This document shows positions 1,675-8,763 of a stretch of DNA of 8,763 nt, in pieces. Within the stretch, counting starts at the first letter, position 1; each line of letters starts with the position of its first letter. The stretch lies in IMG/VR virus record IMGVR_UViG_2737471850_000007. One strand, 5' to 3'. A program made the position numbers and the translations under genes. The notes below the pieces were generated by a model. That model was given only the letters and a program-made list of their open reading frames with translations. It was not told the DNA's origin and did not search any database. The stretch comes from a virus (lineage: Duplodnaviria > Heunggongvirae > Uroviricota > Caudoviricetes).

Positions 1675-2229
1675 TTGCTTCAATCTGGTCTGACCTGTTT
1701 TCTGAGCAATTCAGTAATGTCACTCTTTTCTTTGTTTGCTTCAGAAGTAACTCTTTTTTCTGAGCACAGTCTCCGGCGGCAGGCTTCAATGACCCAGGCT
1801 GAGAAATTCCCGGACCCTTTTTGCTCAAGAGCGATGTTAATTTGTTCAATCATTTGGTTAGGAAAGCTGCGCCGGGAAGTTGAAGAACTGCGGCAGGCCA
1901 GCGAGACAGATCTCCAGCCAGGGACTATTGAGTACGAACGCCATCGACTTACGCGTGCGCAGGCCGACGCACAGGAGCTGAAAAATGCCAGAGACTCCGC
2001 TGAAGTGGTGGAAACCGCATTCTGTACTTTCGTGCTGTCGCGGATCGCAGGTGAAATTGCCAGTATTCTCGACGGGATCCCCCTGTCGGTGCAGCGGCGT
2101 TTTCCGGAACTGGAAAACCGACATGTTGATTTCCTGAAACGGGATATCATCAAAGCCATGAACAAAGCAGCCGCGCTGGATGAACTGATACCGGGGTTGC
2201 TGAGTGAATATATCGAACAGTCAGGTTAA
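1675..2229 (+). CDS. nohA: Terminase small subunit (lambda Nu1) homolog, chimeric. The C-terminal ~120 aa are Nu1-like; the N-terminal ~63 codons are unrelated and the true start is uncertain (TTG 1675, ATG 1717, 1789 or 1834).
   Basis: From [50 protein letters not shown]... to the end ...LSEYIEQSG the protein matches the lambda Nu1 C-terminal region from memory. Upstream of about 1864 it does not. The 3' end overlaps the start of the next gene by 26 nt, as in lambda. Confidence 0.6.
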
Positions 2230-3178
2230 CAGGCTGCGGCATTTTGTCCGCGCCGGGCTTCGCTCACTGTTCAGGCCGGAGCCACAGACCGCCGTTGAAT
2301 GGGCGGATGCCAATTACTATCTCCCGAAAGAATCCGCATACCAGGAAGGGCGCTGGGAAACACTGCCCTTTCAGCGGGCCATCATGAATGCGATGGGCAG
2401 CGACTACATCCGCGAGGTGAATGTGGTGAAGTCTGCCCGTGTTGGTTATTCCAAAATGCTGTTGGGTGTTTATGCCTACTTCATAGAGCATAAGCAGCGC
2501 AACACACTTATCTGGTTGCCGACGGATGGTGATGCCGAGAACTTTATGAAAACCCACGTTGAGCCGACCATCCGTGATATTCCTTCGCTGCTGGCGCTGG
2601 CCCCGTGGTATGGCAAAAAGCACCGGGATAACACGCTCACCATGAAGCGTTTCACCAATGGGCGTGGCTTCTGGTGCCTGGGCGGTAAAGCGGCAAAAAA
2701 CTACCGTGAAAAGTCAGTGGATGTGGCGGGTTATGATGAACTTGCTGCCTTTGATGAGGATATTGAACAGGAAGGCTCTCCGACGTTCCTGGGCGATAAG
2801 CGTATTGAAGGCTCTGTCTGGCCAAAATCCATCCGTGGCTCCACGCCCAAAGTGAGAGGCACCTGCCAGATTGAGCGTGCAGCCAGTGAATCCCCGCATT
2901 TTATGCGTTTTCATGTTGCCTGCCCGCACTGCGGGAAGGAGCAGTACCTTAAATTTGGCGACAAAGAGACGCCGTTTGGCCTCAAATGGATGCCGGATGA
3001 TCCCTCCAGCGTGTTTTATCTCTGTGAGCATAATGCCTGCGTCATCCGTCAGCAGGACGGAACGTTTAAGCCAGCATACAGCAACAACATGGCCTGGTGT
3101 CTGTGGGATATGCTGACCCAGAGGATATTGCATCCGCCGTGGCGCTTGAGGATGCAAGTACGACGAAAAAGGGGATAG
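2204..3178 (+). pseudogene. Terminase large subunit (lambda gpA) N-terminal fragment of about 284 aa, followed by 41 codons of out-of-frame junction sequence
   Basis: GTG start at 2204. [59 protein letters not shown]...CVIRQQ matches lambda gpA from memory, including the Walker A-like KSARVGYSK. Homology ends at about 3055; stop at 3176-3178. The C-terminal two-thirds of gpA are absent. Confidence 0.8.
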
Positions 3179-4881
3179 TACAGCTCAGCAGTGCGACCAA
3201 CAGCACATCTGAAACGCTTGCCGCGACACCGAAGGCAGTTAAAGCAGCGAATGACAATGCGAATGGCAGGGTACCATCTAACCGAAAAGTTAACGGGAAA
3301 GCACTGACTGCGGATATAACATTAACACCGAAAGATATTGGCACTTTAAATTCAGTAACGATCTCTTTCTCTGGCGGGGCAGGGTGGTTCAAACTGGCAA
3401 CGGTTACCATGCCACAAGCGAGTTCCATCGTTTACATCGCATTGATTGGTGGCGCTGGTTACAACGTCGGCTCCCCACAGCAGGCAGGCATTTCAGAACT
3501 GGTTCTACGAGCAGGCAATGGAAACCCCAAAGGGATTACCGGAGCTTTGTGGAAGCGTACAGCCGTCGGATTAACGAATTTCGCCTGGATCAACACATCC
3601 GGCGATACATATGATATTTACGTTGAGATTGGCAATTATGCGACGAGTGTAAATATCCATTGGGATTGTACTACAAATGCGTCAGTTTCTATTTATACCT
3701 CGCCAACATATTCAGCGAGTAAGCCTTCCAGCGTTACCGGTGGTGTTGTTTATACGATGTATAGCTCACATCAGAAACCTACACCATCAGATATTGGAGC
3801 GCTGCCAACGACTGGAGGGACTATTTCAGGTCCGTTGTCTGTTACTGATGGGATCACCGGGGCACTGAAGGGGAACGCCGATACCGCGACGAAACTTGCG
3901 GCAGCCCCAAAAATTAACGGTGTTAAGTTTGATGGCTCGGCGGATATTAACCTCACGCCGGAAAATATTGGTGCATTTGCCCGACGTTCGACGGGGGCTT
4001 ATGCGGATTCGGATGGAGCCGTTCCCTGGAATGCCGAATCAGGCGCTTACAATGTCACCCGCTCTGGCAACAGCTATATTCTGGTTAACTTCTATACCGG
4101 AGTCGGAAGTTGCCGGACCTTGCAGATGAAGGCACATTACAGAAATGGAGGTCTGTTCTACCGTTCCTCAAGAGATGGCTATGGTTTTGAGGAAGACTGG
4201 GCAGAAGTTTATACCTCGAAAAATCTTCCACCAGAAAGCTACCCAGTCGGCGCACCAATCCCGTGGCCATCAGATACCGTTCCGTCTGGTTATGCCCTGA
4301 TGCAGGGGCAGACTTTTGACAAATCTGCTTACCCGAAACTTGCAGCCGCTTATCCGTCAGGTGTGATCCCTGATATGCGTGGCTGGACGATTAAGGGCAA
4401 ACCTGCCAGTGGTCGGGCCGTATTGTCTCAGGAACAGGACGGCATTAAATCGCACACCCACAGCGCCAGCGTATCCAGTACGGATTTGGGGACGAAAACC
4501 ACATCGTCGTTTGATTACGGCACTAAATCCACGAATAACACTGGTGCGCATACCCATAGTGTTAGCGGTACGGCTGCTTCAGCCGGTGCACATACCCATT
4601 CGATGACATTTGTTTCAGGTGGTTCCAGTGGTGCTCCGGGAAGTGGATCACCTGATTATTCTAAATACAGTGTTAACACTTCTTCTGCAGGCGCTCATAC
4701 GCACTCTGTATCGGGTACTGCTGCAAGCGCAGGTGCACACGCACATACTGTCGGTATTGGTGCTCATACGCACTCCGTTGCGATTGGTTCACATGGACAT
4801 ACCATCACCGTTAACGCTGCTGGTAACGCGGAAAACACCGTCAAAAACATCGCATTTAACTATATTGTGAGGCTTGCGTAA
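3097..4881 (+). CDS. stfQ: Side tail fibre protein, C-terminal portion (lambda Stf-like). It has no canonical ATG start and is probably a truncated remnant.
   Basis: Frame open from 3070; Stf homology starts near 3121 ([41 protein letters not shown]). The C-terminal region [74 protein letters not shown], the GAHTHS/GAHAHT His-x-His repeats and ...[18 protein letters not shown] match lambda Stf from memory. TAA at 4879-4881 overlaps the tfa ATG. Confidence 0.7.
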
Positions 4882-5456
4882 TGGCATTCAGAATGAGTGA
4901 ACAACCACGGACCATAAAAATTTATAATCTGCTGGCCGGAACTAATGAATTTATTGGTGAAGGTGACGCATATATTCCGCCTCATACAGGTCTGCCAGCA
5001 AACAGTACCGATATTGCACCGCCAGATATTCCGGCAGGCTTCGTGGCTGTTTTCAACAGTGATGAGGCATCGTGGCATCTCGTTGAAGATCATCGGGGTA
5101 AAACGGTTTATGACGTGGCTTCCGGCGACGCGTTATTTATTTCTGAACTCGGTCCGTTACCGGAAAATGTTACCTGGTTATCGCCGGGAGGGGAATATCA
5201 GAAGTGGAACGGCACAGCCTGGGTGAAGGATACGGAAGCAGAAAAACTGTTCCGGATCCGGGAGGCGGAAGAAACAAAAAACAGCCTGATGCAGATAGCC
5301 AGTGAGCATATAGCGCCGCTTCAGGATGCTGTGGATCTGGAGATCGCAACGGAGGAAGAAACCTTGTTGCTGGAAGCCTGGAAAAAGTATCGGGTGTTGC
5401 TGAACCGTGTTGATACATCAACTGCACCGGATATTGAATGGCCAGCACTGCCGTAG
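4881..5456 (+). CDS. tfaQ: Tail fibre assembly protein (lambda Tfa-like), 191 aa
   Basis: ATG at 4881 overlaps the stf stop (TAATG), with SD GAGG 8 nt upstream. Protein [51 protein letters not shown]... is near-identical to lambda Tfa from memory. Confidence 0.85.
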
Positions 5457-5532
5457 GGTAAAACATATAAATTCTATAATTAGATGTATCTCTCCATTTA
5501 CGGCAAGGAAGGGGGCTTGGAAGACGTAAAGC

Positions 5533-5557
5533 ATCTCACACCGAGATTATTTTTTAT
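5533..5557 (+). terminator. Weak candidate terminator after tfa
   Basis: ATCTC-ACACC-GAGAT 5-bp stem followed by TATTTTTTAT; it overlaps the pin stop codon. The stem is short and AT-rich. Confidence 0.2.
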
Positions 5558-6144
5558 ATGTCAGGTGTCTGAAGTTTTGCTTTGGCTCTTAAAATGGTTT
5601 GCCGCGAGGTTTTGAATTCCCGGGCAATGGCACTTATACTTACACCTGACTTAATTCGTTCGAATACCACCTGTTTCTGTTCTTCATTTAACACAGGTGG
5701 TCGACCAAAACGTTTCCCTGCGCCGCGGGCTCTTACTATCCCGGAATGAGTGCGTTCAAGTAAAAGGTCTCGTTCAAATTCAGCGACTGCTGAAATTACG
5801 TGCATCATCATTTTTCCTGTTGGACTGGTCAGGTCAATGCCCCCCAATGCTAAGCAATGCACTCTGATACCTGTTTCGGTCAGTTGTTCCACTGTTTTCC
5901 TGATATCCATTGCATTACAACCAAGGCGATCCAGTTTTGTCACAATCAATTGATCACCACATTTCAGGCGAGCAAGCAACCGGTTAAAACCAGGACGCTC
6001 ACTGGTTGCTGCTGAGCCGCTAATGTGTTCTTCGATTATTTGCTGAGGTTTGATTTTAAAACCTGCACTTTCGATTTCCCGGCGTTGATTTTCGGTGGTC
6101 TGATCCAGCGTTGATATCCGACAGTAAGCAAAAATTCGAGACAT
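5554..6144 (-). CDS. pinQ: Site-specific DNA invertase, serine recombinase of the Hin/Gin/Cin/Pin family, 196 aa
   Basis: [20 protein letters not shown]... has the resolvase-type catalytic motif (Ser11 in R-I-S-T-x-D-Q) and a C-terminal HTH ([20 protein letters not shown]). It is convergent with tfa, separated by 97 bp. The Q versus R paralog assignment rests on the neighbours ydfK, ydfJ, cspI and gnsB. Confidence 0.85.
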
Positions 6145-6281
6145 AGTGAGACTCTATACGAAATTGGTGTTCATATCATAATGCATCTCAGAAAATAATT
6201 TTGATTATTTTTGTGCATATTTGTATGTACACGTTCGAAAATAAACGAATGCGTATGCAACCCCGTAACTTTGGTGAGACC

Positions 6282-6295
6282 CAAAATCGATTTTG
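6282..6295. repeat. 14-bp perfect palindrome CAAAATCGATTTTG, 138-153 bp upstream of the pin start codon
   Basis: Exactly self-complementary and centred on TCGA, with a second inverted repeat AACTCG-N10-CGAGTT at 6310-6331. Candidate protein-binding site. Confidence 0.3.
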
Positions 6296-6460
6296 TGAAA
6301 AATGGCTTTAACTCGGTTTGTTTTTCGAGTTCCGGGCGGACTCAAGGAAGAAGAATAGTGTTGCGTGTTATTTTAACCAGATTTCAAGTTGTTTGGTCGT
6401 GGAAAAGTGGAGCAAAATGTTGTTAAAGTGGAAAAATGATAAAAAAGTAAGTTTATTATA

Positions 6461-6694
6461 TTACATTTTACCATTTAAATTTTGGTTGTCTTTAAGAACT
6501 GATATCGCTGTTTGTAATAATTCTTTGTTATCCAGCCATGATTTTTTCTTTATGTTTCCTTCAATGTAATCAAGCAATGTTCTGGTATTGATAGGTCTTC
6601 CCTGTTTTGCTACTTCCACTACAGCATCCCCTAGGATAATTCTGACTTCAGGAAGCTGCGCAGGGAACCACTTTAGGGTGTCTTTTGATTTCAT
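6461..6694 (-). CDS. ydfK: Small prophage protein of the YdfK/YnaE family (cold-shock induced in K-12, from memory), 77 aa
   Basis: Minus-strand ORF 6461..6727. The internal ATG at 6692-6694 has SD AAGGA 8 nt upstream and gives MKSKDTLKWFPAQLPEVRIILGDAVVEVAKQGRPINTRTLLDYIEGNIKKKSWLDNKELLQTAISVLKDNQNLNGKM. The upstream ATG at 6725 has no SD. Confidence 0.7.
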   Translation of the reverse strand: MKSKDTLKWFPAQLPEVRIILGDAVVEVAKQGRPINTRTLLDYIEGNIKKKSWLDNKELLQTAISVLKDNQNLNGKM

Positions 6695-7479
6695 GAATAT
6701 ATTCCTTAAAATATTATTGATTTTCATTGCGATATTGTATGTCTGATTCAGGATATGTTGACTTATACATCGGTTTTGTCTGGGTTATTGGATATGCCAA
6801 TCCCTAATTTTATTAGAGCATGACTAAAAATGCTGAATATGATAAGGAGCGAAGTGATTATCAGTATGCTGTTCATATAGCCTCGAATTAGTAATGTGTT
6901 ATATATGATATAGTTGACAATTTTTATCCTGGGTGTTCTTAAAGTTCGTAGATAAACATTGTCGTTTCAGGTATACAGGAATGCTAACAGATGGCGGCAA
7001 AAATCAGGCGGTTTATGGCGCAAGCTGAAGTGGCAACTGCAAACTATCTTATGCAGAGACTCTACACGGATTGGGTTTAAAAGTATACATAGATAACAGT
7101 TTTTATCTGAAGAAGAAAAATATCAAGGTGATATAGCCTATATGCCTTTGATGTGGAGGAATGAATGTGATGGGAGTGATGTATCTGAATAGTTGAAAAA
7201 CCGCAGACACGCCTTATGCAAGAACGTGCTGCGGTTGGCTGGTAAATTTTTCGATAGTGCGAGTATTGAATGATTTCCAGCCGTTATTGATTTTACGCGT
7301 AACTCCATGAAAAAACTACTTATCTGTTGAGGAGTTTTTTTGGGGCATATATGGGACAGAAATGGGCCCCAGATAGACACTGAGATCGAACTTAGGATGC
7401 TTTTTAAAAAATGCAACTATCTGAAAAAACCTAGAAAACGTCAAGGAAACCACAGGATGGGAAAAAACACCTGTGAATT

Positions 7480-8763
7480 ATGGATTTCCAGTTATATTCG
7501 CTCGGCGCAGCGTTAGTGTTTCATGAAATATTTTTTCCTGAATCATCAACGGCAATGGCGTTAATTCTGGCAATGGGAACCTACGGTGCAGGTTATGTGG
7601 CGCGTATTGTCGGAGCATTTATTTTCGGCAAAATGGGCGACAGAATAGGGCGTAAAAAAGTGCTCTTTATTACCATCACCATGATGGGGATCTGTACCAC
7701 CTTAATTGGTGTGTTACCGACCTATGCACAGATTGGTGTTTTTGCACCCATCTTGCTGGTGACGTTGCGTATTATTCAGGGGTTGGGTGCAGGTGCGGAA
7801 ATTTCCGGTGCCGGTACGATGCTGGCGGAATATGCGCCAAAAGGTAAGCGCGGAATTATCTCCTCATTTGTGGCTATGGGAACTAACTGCGGAACCTTGA
7901 GCGCAACGGCAATCTGGGCCTTTATGTTCTTCATTCTCAGTAAAGAGGAACTGCTGGCGTGGGGATGGCGTATACCGTTCCTGGCGAGTGTTGTCGTGAT
8001 GGTCTTTGCTATCTGGTTGCGTATGAATCTGAAAGAAAGCCCGGTCTTTGAGAAGGTTAACGACAGTAACCAACCGACAGCAAAACCTGCACCTGCTGGT
8101 AGCATGTTCCAGAGCAAATCCTTCTGGCTGGCAACAGGGCTGCGTTTTGGTCAGGCGGGTAACTCCGGGTTAATTCAGACTTTCCTTGCAGGCTATTTAG
8201 TGCAGACGTTATTGTTTAACAAAGCAATTCCAACAGATGCATTGATGATCAGTTCGATTCTCGGCTTTATGACCATTCCGTTCCTTGGTTGGTTATCCGA
8301 TAAAATTGGTCGCCGGATCCCGTATATTATTATGAATACCTCCGCGATTGTGCTGGCATGGCCAATGCTTTCTATCATTGTAGATAAAAGCTATGCCCCG
8401 AGCACCATTATGGTTGCACTGATTGTGATTCATAACTGTGCGGTGCTGGGATTATTTGCTCTGGAAAACATTACCATGGCAGAAATGTTCGGCTGTAAAA
8501 ACCGCTTTACCCGGATGGCTATTTCTAAAGAAATTGGTGGTCTTATCGCTTCCGGTTTTGGTCCTATCCTGGCGGGTATTTTCTGCACCATGACGGAATC
8601 CTGGTATCCGATCGCCATTATGATCATGGCATATTCAGTGATTGGTTTAATCTCTGCGCTGAAAATGCCAGAGGTGAAAGACCGTGATTTAAGTGCGCTG
8701 GAAGACGCTGCGGAAGATCAACCGCGTGTTGTAAGAGCTGCGCAACCTTCCAGAAGTCTGTAA
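7480..8763 (+). CDS. ydfJ: MFS transporter of the metabolite:H+ symporter type (ProP/KgtP-like), 427 aa. It appears N-terminally truncated at the prophage junction.
   Basis: Hydrophobic multi-span protein with the MFS loop motif GKMGDRIGRKKVL and GWRIPF. The first residues MDFQLYSLGAALVFHEIFFP align to the conserved (E-W-F/Y)-D-F...FFP block that in ProP and KgtP follows a 25-35 aa cytoplasmic N-terminus, which is missing here. TAA at 8761-8763. Confidence 0.85.
   Translation: MDFQLYSLGAALVFHEIFFPESSTAMALILAMGTYGAGYVARIVGAFIFGKMGDRIGRKKVLFITITMMGICTTLIGVLPTYAQIGVFAPILLVTLRIIQGLGAGAEISGAGTMLAEYAPKGKRGIISSFVAMGTNCGTLSATAIWAFMFFILSKEELLAWGWRIPFLASVVVMVFAIWLRMNLKESPVFEKVNDSNQPTAKPAPAGSMFQSKSFWLATGLRFGQAGNSGLIQTFLAGYLVQTLLFNKAIPTDALMISSILGFMTIPFLGWLSDKIGRRIPYIIMNTSAIVLAWPMLSIIVDKSYAPSTIMVALIVIHNCAVLGLFALENITMAEMFGCKNRFTRMAISKEIGGLIASGFGPILAGIFCTMTESWYPIAIMIMAYSVIGLISALKMPEVKDRDLSALEDAAEDQPRVVRAAQPSRSL

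Follow-up and report, generated by a model that had tools for sequence, protein, structure and literature searches.

The pinQ gene of a Qin-type lambdoid prophage is very probably the resolvase gene of a decayed Tn3-family mini-transposon

Tn3 and gamma-delta are the textbook models of the Tn3 transposon family, of which the divergent tnpA-res-tnpR layout is the classic arrangement. The resolvases (TnpR) of both transposons normally require accessory sites and directly repeated resolution (res) sites, and both proteins autorepress at res. The Din invertases (Hin, Gin, Cin, and Pin) have a different type of site, a 26-bp crossover site of the TTATCNAAACC type, in which 12-bp half-sites surround a 2-bp core and which is present as two copies in inverted orientation. 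TIME-RES is a non-autonomous Tn3-family element whose 38-bp inverted repeats (IRs) enclose res, a resolvase gene, and nothing else (Szuplewska et al. 2014, PLoS One, PMC4133298), and IS101 of pSC101 is a 209-bp miniature element that is derived from gamma-delta and has a weak res (PMC4133298). Here, we analyze a stretch of 8,763 nucleotides of virus DNA (IMG/VR record IMGVR_UViG_2737471850_000007; referred to as the window), which represents the end nearest to ydfJ of a defective lambdoid prophage of the Qin type in Escherichia coli, and in particular its pinQ gene. Both pinQ and pinR are annotated in K-12 and owe their names to an analogy with the invertase of e14; a first-pass annotation of the window likewise described pinQ as an intact Pin-family invertase with no invertible cassette next to it. 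In our assessment, positions 5511 to 6344 very probably constitute an 834-bp non-autonomous Tn3-family element that resembles TIME-RES, and pinQ is its tnpR gene rather than a Din invertase stripped of its cassette.

From one end to the other, the putative element would comprise an IR, the tnpR gene, res, a remaining scrap of the tnpA 3' end, and a second IR, with no transposase gene, and a tblastn search with a 994-amino-acid (aa) Tn3-family TnpA found no tnpA coding sequence in the window. It aligns end to end with a mini-element of the same order, IR-res-tnpR-IR, on an E. coli plasmid (locus L010). The tnpR-end IR, GGGGGCTTGGAAGACGTAAAGCATCTCACACCGAG (positions 5511 to 5545, plus strand), is degenerate with a 3-nt deletion, starts 8 bp past the pinQ stop codon as it does in L010, and is identical to the L010 IR in 27 of 38 aligned columns. 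pinQ itself (positions 5554 to 6144, minus strand) is an intact open reading frame (ORF) that encodes a 196-aa small serine recombinase of the TnpR type. It is followed by a putative decayed res with the pinQ promoter region (positions 6145 to 6262, minus strand), which aligns with the res sites of L010 and L024 without a shift in register, and then by a spacer (positions 6263 to 6306, minus strand) in which the alignment of the whole L010 element places the tnpA scrap and a 14-bp palindrome. The IR at the res/tnpA end, TGAGTCCGCCCGGAACTCGAAAAACAAACCGAGTTAAA (positions 6307 to 6344, minus strand), is also degenerate and matches the corresponding L010 IR at 26 of 38 positions. Both ends are of the 38-bp GGGG...ACGCTAAG type. 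Abutting the outer ends of the two IRs are identical copies of AGGAA (positions 5506 to 5510 and 6345 to 6349), a putative target-site duplication; a match at five of five positions has a chance probability of about 0.001, or about 0.009 when a shift of 1 bp in either direction is allowed at each boundary.

The ends were also recovered by searches of the whole window. With the L010 IR as the query, the top local-alignment match is at positions 5515 to 5539, and homology with the plasmid copies begins at position 5515 (megablast, H229). When at most three mismatches are allowed, the window contains a single match to the general IR pattern of the Tn3 family, GGGG-N7-GGAA-N2-CG-N-AAA-N11-TAAG, at positions 6307 to 6344, with 0.01 expected by chance. 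With the IR queries, the two highest-scoring local alignments fall at positions 5515 to 5539 (plus strand) and 6308 to 6341 (minus strand) and have the expected inverted orientation. We propose that a single transposition, with the transposase presumably supplied in trans, carried the element into the b region of an ancestral lambdoid phage of the Rac/Qin type, where it would have inserted at a point 50 bp 3' of tfa, with duplication of AGGAA as the target. The first-pass annotation had drawn attention to the convergent orientation of pin and tfa and to the distance between them, and the gap (positions 5457 to 5553) is exactly 97 bp; the insertion of a mini-element beside tfa would explain the orientation, the gap, and the lack of gix-like sites. 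As the resolvase gene of a landed mini-transposon, pinQ would never have had a tail-fiber cassette to flip. Tn5403 was considered as a candidate progenitor transposon and is not claimed as such.

In plasmid pAA-ST131 (L012) and Shewanella glacialipiscicola (L022), a full Tn3-family tnpA lies divergent to the pinQ homolog and about 160 bp upstream of it. Both are full elements, of 6.7 kb and 9.4 kb, respectively, with 38-bp terminal IRs that follow the form GGGGTCCGCTTGGAAAACGGAAAATATCC-ACGCTAAG and with a perfect target duplication of 5 bp around each element (AATAT in L012 and TAGAT in L022). The homologs in L011 and L024 have tnpA remnants beside them, and upstream of the homolog in L025 lies a more distant tnpA (21% identity), likewise divergent. 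In eight relatives, the res sub-sites are found in a fixed register within 110 bp upstream of the start codon, and sub-sites A, B, and C are all built from TGT(C/A)CGAAA. Site A is the distal dyad of 12+2+12 bp, such as TGACCGAAACCG-GT-CGGTTTCGTACA; site B is a second dyad of 12+8+12 bp; and site C is proximal, over the promoter. A homolog in Erwinia phage LS-2018a, 59% identical to PinQ, has the same sub-site spacing, with all arms reading GTACTAAA and with the recognition helix VTRQSVMRV, and this covariation of half-site and recognition helix is good evidence that the protein binds at the sub-sites. This homolog (L008:7880-8606) is located directly after an apparent terminase gene, and no flanking inverted repeats, no cassette, and no Tn3 IRs were found around it.

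In the window, this arrangement has decayed, presumably after the insertion: the dyad at site A, where crossover would take place, is broken, with one arm scoring 6.9 and its partner unrecognizable, and site B, the presumed accessory site, has two mismatches in each arm. The only well-preserved half-site is the site C arm TATACGAAATTG (positions 6155 to 6166, plus strand), which scores 13.8 in the matrix built for res half-sites, against a training median of 14.4, and lies 11 to 22 bp upstream of the pinQ start codon, in the same register as in the relatives. TATGAT at positions 6180 to 6175 is homologous to the TATAAT of the relatives. The suggestion that the sites of this recombinase are too diverged to be spotted by eye is not supported: those of its family are TGT(C/A)CGAAA res half-sites upstream of the gene, which have decayed here and are not gix-like.

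Other members of this clade show further arrangements. An apparently intact IR-res-tnpR-IR mini-element is present on two E. coli plasmids of the IncI/ColV type (L010:4786-5637, 852 bp, and L039:3994-4845), where it retains the catalytic Arg and five of five half-sites and adjoins sitABCD-like genes for an iron/manganese ABC transporter. An Erwinia oleae contig (L026:1299-2633) carries two PinQ-clade genes head to head, with arms of 566 nt that are 74% complementary; two res-like regions are inverted between the two genes (67-nt arms, 79%) and could in principle support inversion.

The protein also belongs with the TnpR resolvases. PinQ contains a Resolvase domain (PF00239; residues 4 to 144, E value of 4e-36) and an HTH_7 domain (PF02796; residues 147 to 190, E value of 4e-11), and its Ser nucleophile is Ser11, within YCRIS. 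By its sequence it is a small serine recombinase, with a catalytic domain bearing the Ser and a C-terminal helix-turn-helix, and the first-pass annotation was correct in describing the ORF as intact with these features. The assignment to the Pin family does not hold. PinQ is 38.6% identical to PinE, 36.0% to Cin, 36.4% to Gin, and 34.6% to Hin, whereas these four proteins are 65 to 82% identical to one another; its distance from them (35 to 39%) is the same as that of gamma-delta resolvase, which is 36% identical to the four. By comparison, PinQ is 82.7%, 78.5%, and 76.6% identical to the TnpR proteins of L010, L012, and L022, respectively. Its recognition helix, TSRQTILRA, corresponds to TTRQTILRV in the TnpR relatives and is not of the V-x-x-STLYK/R type that is found in PinE, Cin, Gin, and Hin and serves to read the hix/gix half-site, and three insertions separate PinQ from the Din proteins. 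Judged by identity and by the recognition helix, PinQ lies outside the Din family. Protein searches retrieved thousands of relatives at 60 to 84% identity, and 1,858 plasmid records match PinQ at an E value of 1e-40 or lower. PHROGs labels the family only as "DNA invertase," and NCBIfam has no specific model for it, with all matches falling far below the cutoffs.

No Din-type crossover site was found in the window. The scan used a matrix built from eight sites, namely, cixL and cixR of P1, two gix sites of D108, pixL and pixR of K-12 e14, and hixL and hixR. Its best score for a 26-bp site over the whole window was 6.2, in comparison with 18.8 to 32.4 for true sites, and the best score in shuffled sequences was 4.9 ± 3.6 on average; the earlier failure to find a pair of inverted gix- or hix-like sites by eye was thus borne out. 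The lone half-site that had been reported inside pin, GAGGTTTTG, does occur there once (positions 5606 to 5614), in the codons of the helix-turn-helix, and its half-site score of 6.1, about rank 19 among the half-sites of the window, is at the level of chance. AAACCNNGGTTT with up to two mismatches has 7 matches in the window, with 5.4 expected, and none is near pin. A window-wide search for inverted repeats gave 113 pairs, none of which meaningfully flanks pin or part of stf-tfa, and the longest (23 to 27 nt, 70 to 83% complementarity) lie between unrelated genes. A perfect 14-bp palindrome, CAAAATCGATTTTG (positions 6282 to 6295), lies in the stretch that separates the res remnant from the IR and is kept in all of the Rac and Qin copies examined. 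It was considered as a gix core and rejected, because it fails the crossover-site matrix and because nothing comparable stands at the corresponding place of the L010 alignment. As had been stated, stf and tfa are present in one copy each; tblastn searches of the window with both proteins gave no second copy or remnant with an E value below 0.2. In P1, cixL overlaps the 3' end of cin, and an invertase gene may thus point toward its own segment; the P1 annotation also places the recombinational enhancer, which in Din systems is bound by Fis and lies in the 5' part of the invertase gene, at nt 19 to 90 of cin.

The distribution of the insertion argues against a lost cassette. The same junctions, base for base, are found in Rac, K-12 Qin, and other chromosomal copies of E. 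coli and E. ruysiae, as well as in Shigella and in the phages mEp460_ev081 and Tritos; on the evidence of these sequences, all of the copies share one ancestral insertion. A protein 98.5 to 99.5% identical to PinQ is encoded in 11 phage records representing nine different phages, including mEp460_ev081, Tritos, 2H10, and Turner. The gene order in mEp460_ev081 is J, lom, stf, and tfa, followed by the convergent pin and ydfK and then attP, int, and xis. In Tritos, the tail-fiber genes are unrelated, and homology to the window is limited to positions 5346 to 7491. The presence of the same insertion beside unrelated fiber genes indicates that the module is b-region cargo independent of the fiber genes upstream, and that no cassette was lost. 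In 2,674 of 5,426 complete E. coli genomes, tfa, pin, and ydfK are collinear, on one strand and in one place. The proposed loss of the cassette is not supported. Precisely this insertion is carried by viable phages whose tail-fiber genes are unrelated, and pinQ very probably came in as the tnpR gene of a mini-transposon of the Tn3 family, which brought its own inverted repeats and duplicated 5 bp of the target. The window and locus L040 are about 90% identical over positions 5457 to 6144 and 97 to 100% identical from position 6145 onward; the locus is thus a recombination mosaic, and the noncoding divergence between the two cannot be used as a test of constraint on res.

Although the pinQ ORF is intact, the description of the enzyme as apparently functional needs correction, because the position of the catalytic Arg of serine recombinases (R71 in the Tn3 and gamma-delta enzymes) is occupied by a Cys, Cys76. 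The codon is TGT (positions 5917 to 5919, minus strand) in the motif LDRLGC. Among 120 relatives, 112 have LDRLGR, and the Cys, produced by a CGT-to-TGT transition, occurs only in the Rac/Qin lineage. Of the residues essential in Tn3 resolvase (Y6, R8, S10, D36, R68, and R71), PinQ has Y7, R9, S11, and R73; the position of D36 is Glu throughout the PinQ clade, and with Cys76 at the R71 position, the catalytic set is incomplete. The Tn3 substitutions R71A and R71K eliminate in vivo resolution and slow cleavage about 1,000-fold, but the mutants are "not inert" (PMC2794168). Cys76 should thus reduce catalysis roughly a thousandfold. The ratio of nonsynonymous to synonymous substitution rates (dN/dS) is 0.37 between the window and an allele that is 10% diverged, lies in the same phage context, and also has Cys76, whereas it is 0.046 to 0.055 among transposon-borne TnpRs; the value in the phage lineage of PinQ is about seven times higher. 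PinQ is under relaxed yet not absent constraint. The two phage alleles have the same recognition helix but differ at 30 other residues, 10 of which fall in the helix-turn-helix region. The window and K-12 pinQ genes differ by three nonsynonymous and no synonymous changes. The ORF is intact in both alleles, despite their 10% DNA divergence, and in thousands of sequences. Frameshifted pin copies with 93 to 95% DNA identity and 10 to 11 in-frame stops are present in chromosomes of Shigella flexneri and E. coli (L032:6001-6590 and L033:6001-6583); in some lineages, pin is thus already a pseudogene. The state of the protein and of its sites implies that PinQ would be unable to invert or resolve anything within the window. 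What it most likely retains would be the ability to bind the half-site that survives over the pinQ promoter, and hence autoregulation, together with at most a weak recombinase activity in trans.

Several observations weigh against the interpretation of pinQ as the resolvase gene of a transposed and decayed mini-element. Both IRs are degenerate, with 27 and 24 of 38 positions matching the consensus, and the alignment score of each IR by itself is only about 2 standard deviations above the best of shuffled sequences. The empty site, defined as tfa-[AGGAA]-ydfK without the element (sequence around CATTTACGGCAAGGAAGAAGAATAGTG), had no spanning match as a synthetic query in the 5,426 E. coli genomes and 50,697 phage records, and its exact 22-mer is absent from the viral contigs; the transposition is consequently argued from the IRs and the 5-bp repeat, which is the main gap in the case. 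The mini-element of L010 and L039 lacks a target duplication. Among proteins with solved structures, the best sequence match to PinQ is Gin, with 109 bits, in comparison with 82 bits for gamma-delta resolvase. The dN/dS of 0.37 is significantly below 1 (P = 6e-4), and the protein is thus not simply dead. Finally, a shift of the e14 P segment that has been attributed to PinQ is hard to square with a crippled resolvase of different DNA specificity.

This shift was reported by Kirigo et al. (NAR 2025, PMC12529663), who found that overproduction of PinQ confers protection against phage T2 and shifts the inverted fraction of the e14 P segment to about 88%, in comparison with about 30% in the wild type, with stfP, stfE, and e14 being needed for the phenotype. 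Deletion of pinQ lowers both P-segment inversion and T2 resistance (PMC12529663). In the same study, deletion of pinE alone locks the P segment despite the presence of chromosomal pinQ, inversions were found only in e14 and not in Qin or rac, and the identity of PinQ as an invertase was assumed from its 38% identity to PinE, with no catalytic mutant or in vitro assay being reported (PMC12529663). The idea of an orphan that acts in trans thus survives in part: a trans effect has been claimed in print, and no usable partner site is present in cis. The pix half-site, TTCTCCCAAACC, is unrelated to the clade motif TGT(C/A)CGAAA, and with the equivalent of Arg71 lost as well, it would be surprising if PinQ itself exchanged strands at pix. 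PinQ is at least as likely to affect P inversion indirectly or as a modulator.

What PinQ does today can be explained in several ways. It may have been domesticated as a DNA-binding regulator, as a disabled TnpR that represses its own promoter or neighboring genes of the b region, such as ydfK, or that modulates a second recombinase, such as PinE. We regard this as possible but hold it only tentatively. It would suit the natural role of TnpR proteins as autorepressors at res, the promoter-proximal position of the best-kept half-site, the invariance of the recognition helix between alleles that differ at 30 other residues, and the moderate constraint given by a dN/dS of 0.37. However, one good half-site is left where dyads are needed for the stable binding of a dimer, and one-third of the differences between the alleles (10 of 30) fall in the helix-turn-helix region. 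The dependence of P inversion on PinE fits the modulating variant (PMC12529663).

We consider it rather unlikely that PinQ, whatever its origin, is a working trans recombinase that, in spite of Cys76 and its TnpR-type DNA-binding domain, itself brings the e14 pix sites into synapsis and recombines them and thereby provides phage defense. The level of inversion on overproduction (88%, against 30% in the wild type) and its dependence on stfP, stfE, and e14 speak for this possibility (PMC12529663), as do the residual activity of Tn3 R71 mutants (PMC2794168), the dN/dS below 1, and the ORF kept intact in thousands of genomes. Against it are the unrelated pix half-site and the loss of the R71 equivalent, as well as the locking of P in the pinE deletion although chromosomal pinQ was present. 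In addition, the cells were selected under phage pressure, and the enrichment of one orientation could be indirect. Enzymes of the resolvase type, moreover, normally depend on accessory sites and directly repeated res sites.

It is likewise doubtful that PinQ is a slowly decaying, functionless relic, carried along because the b region is nonessential and because, at the prevailing mutation rate, little time has passed since the insertion. The lost catalytic Arg, the decayed res, the degenerate IRs, a dN/dS seven times that of functional relatives, the frameshifted copies in Shigella and E. coli (L032 and L033), and the three nonsynonymous changes with no synonymous one relative to K-12 pinQ would all be expected of a relic. 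A dN/dS significantly below 1 (P = 6e-4) would not, nor would an ORF that is intact in both alleles and in thousands of sequences or the published deletion phenotypes (PMC12529663).

A more specific proposal, which we judge quite improbable, is that a disabled TnpR has been co-opted to bias the PinE-catalyzed inversion of e14 P toward one orientation without carrying out strand exchange of its own, possibly through mixed complexes or by binding near pix. If true, a fossil transposon resolvase in one prophage would tune the invertase switch of another for antiphage defense, and the Cys76 substitution and TnpR-type DNA-binding domain would be reconciled with both the shift from 30% to 88% and the locking of P by the pinE deletion.

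Least likely of all, to the point of being very improbable, is that PinQ is an orphan Din-type (Pin-family) invertase whose own tail-fiber cassette was deleted and which acts in trans on gix- or pix-type sites such as those of e14 P, a reading that has in its favor the conventional name pinQ, the PHROGs label, Gin as the best solved-structure match, the precedent of cixL overlapping the 3' end of cin, and the published effects of overproduction and deletion on the P segment (PMC12529663) but against it the 35 to 39% identity (versus 65 to 82% within Din) and the un-Din-like helix TSRQTILRA, the absence from the window of both a Din-type site and a second stf/tfa remnant, the placement of the gene within Tn3-type inverted repeats and a target duplication, the identical module in viable phages with other fiber genes, the 2,674 collinear genomes, and, in the data of Kirigo et al., the absence of Qin and rac inversions, the locking of P by deletion of pinE alone, and the lack of a reported catalytic mutant or in vitro assay; its lost-cassette part is already contradicted.

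The element described here, with pinQ as its tnpR gene, lies in the end of a defective prophage. The genes of the window are, in order, cspI, ynfN, gnsB, ydfO, ynfO, and nohA, followed by a fragment of the terminase gene gpA that encodes the N-terminal ATPase (to about position 3055), a 66-bp piece of the tail gene J (positions 3055 to 3120), the 3' part of stf (from position 3119), tfaQ, pinQ, and ydfK. The prophage ends near position 7491, and a truncated ydfJ lies beyond. The J piece is 94 to 100% identical to J of mEp460_ev081 and Tritos. The product of tfa (positions 4881 to 5456, plus strand) contains a Caudo_TAP domain (E value of 2e-43). The ydfK reading frame (positions 6461 to 6727, minus strand) is open for 88 aa from the ATG at position 6727, whereas RefSeq gives 77 aa (234 nt), and a PHROG match on residues 12 to 88 favors the shorter start. 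The nohA-stfQ deletion is larger in K-12 than in the window, which is therefore not from K-12 itself, and strain 52F4 is 99.9% identical to the window outside one differing deletion. Positions 2204 to 4881, from nohA to tfa, are a patchwork of deletions, and K-12 and 52F4 have deletions at the same nohA-tfa place that each differ from that of the window. The C-terminal part of the tail-fiber protein (positions 4540 to 4800) contains repeated G-A-H-T-H-S-(V/M) motifs, some of which match Pfam Phage_fiber repeats, and the DNA of this repeat region is unmatched in K-12 and mEp460_ev081 (window positions 4575 to 4692 and 4565 to 4728).

That pinQ is a named gene is known already, and the "orphan invertase" is the current view of it; the present result corrects a long-standing name. 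We found no literature linking pinQ or pinR to TnpR or Tn3. A TIME-RES-like derivative of a Tn3-family transposon has very probably become fixed in lambdoid phages, which is a reannotation and not a new mechanism. The tfa-pin-ydfK arrangement occurs in roughly one-half of the complete E. coli genomes that were searched, and the "recombinase-activated phage defence" described in 2025 rests on the assumption that PinQ is an invertase. A resolvase origin, a decayed res, a lost Arg, and a helix that is unlikely to read pix or gix alter which experiments make sense. The fixation of a TIME-RES-type element in viable lambdoid phages would also represent a route by which the recombination modules of transposons enter phage genomes.

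In comparison with the known systems, the element shares with the Din invertases, through PinQ, the small serine recombinase fold, an N-terminal Ser nucleophile, a C-terminal helix-turn-helix, and a phage or prophage location beside tail-fiber genes. Unlike them, it has no crossover sites, no invertible segment, and no alternative stf or tfa, and pinQ is bounded by transposon ends. It is closer to the transposons of pAA-ST131 and S. glacialipiscicola, whose TnpRs are 77 to 79% identical to PinQ and have the same recognition helix, whose IRs belong to the same family, and whose res sites are composed of TGT(C/A)CGAAA dyads that resemble the gamma-delta site I arm CGTCCGAAA. In contrast to these two, the window element lacks tnpA and passenger genes, its site A dyad is broken, and Cys occupies the R71 position. 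Like IS101, it derives from the Tn3 family, has no transposase, retains IRs together with a resolution site, and would need a helper transposon, but IS101 has no resolvase gene, whereas the window element keeps the gene and has a degraded res. TIME-RES and the window element are alike in having no transposase gene, in their Tn3-family terminal IRs, and in carrying res and tnpR as their sole cargo. Their progenitors differ, being an enterobacterial Tn3-family transposon with the IR GGGGTCCGCTTGGAAAACGG... for the window element and Tn5563 of Pseudomonas for TIME-RES, as do the lengths of their TnpRs (196 aa and 309 aa, respectively), and the window element resides in a phage genome. With its IRs, res, and active site decayed, the window element is a fossil rather than an active element that was captured.

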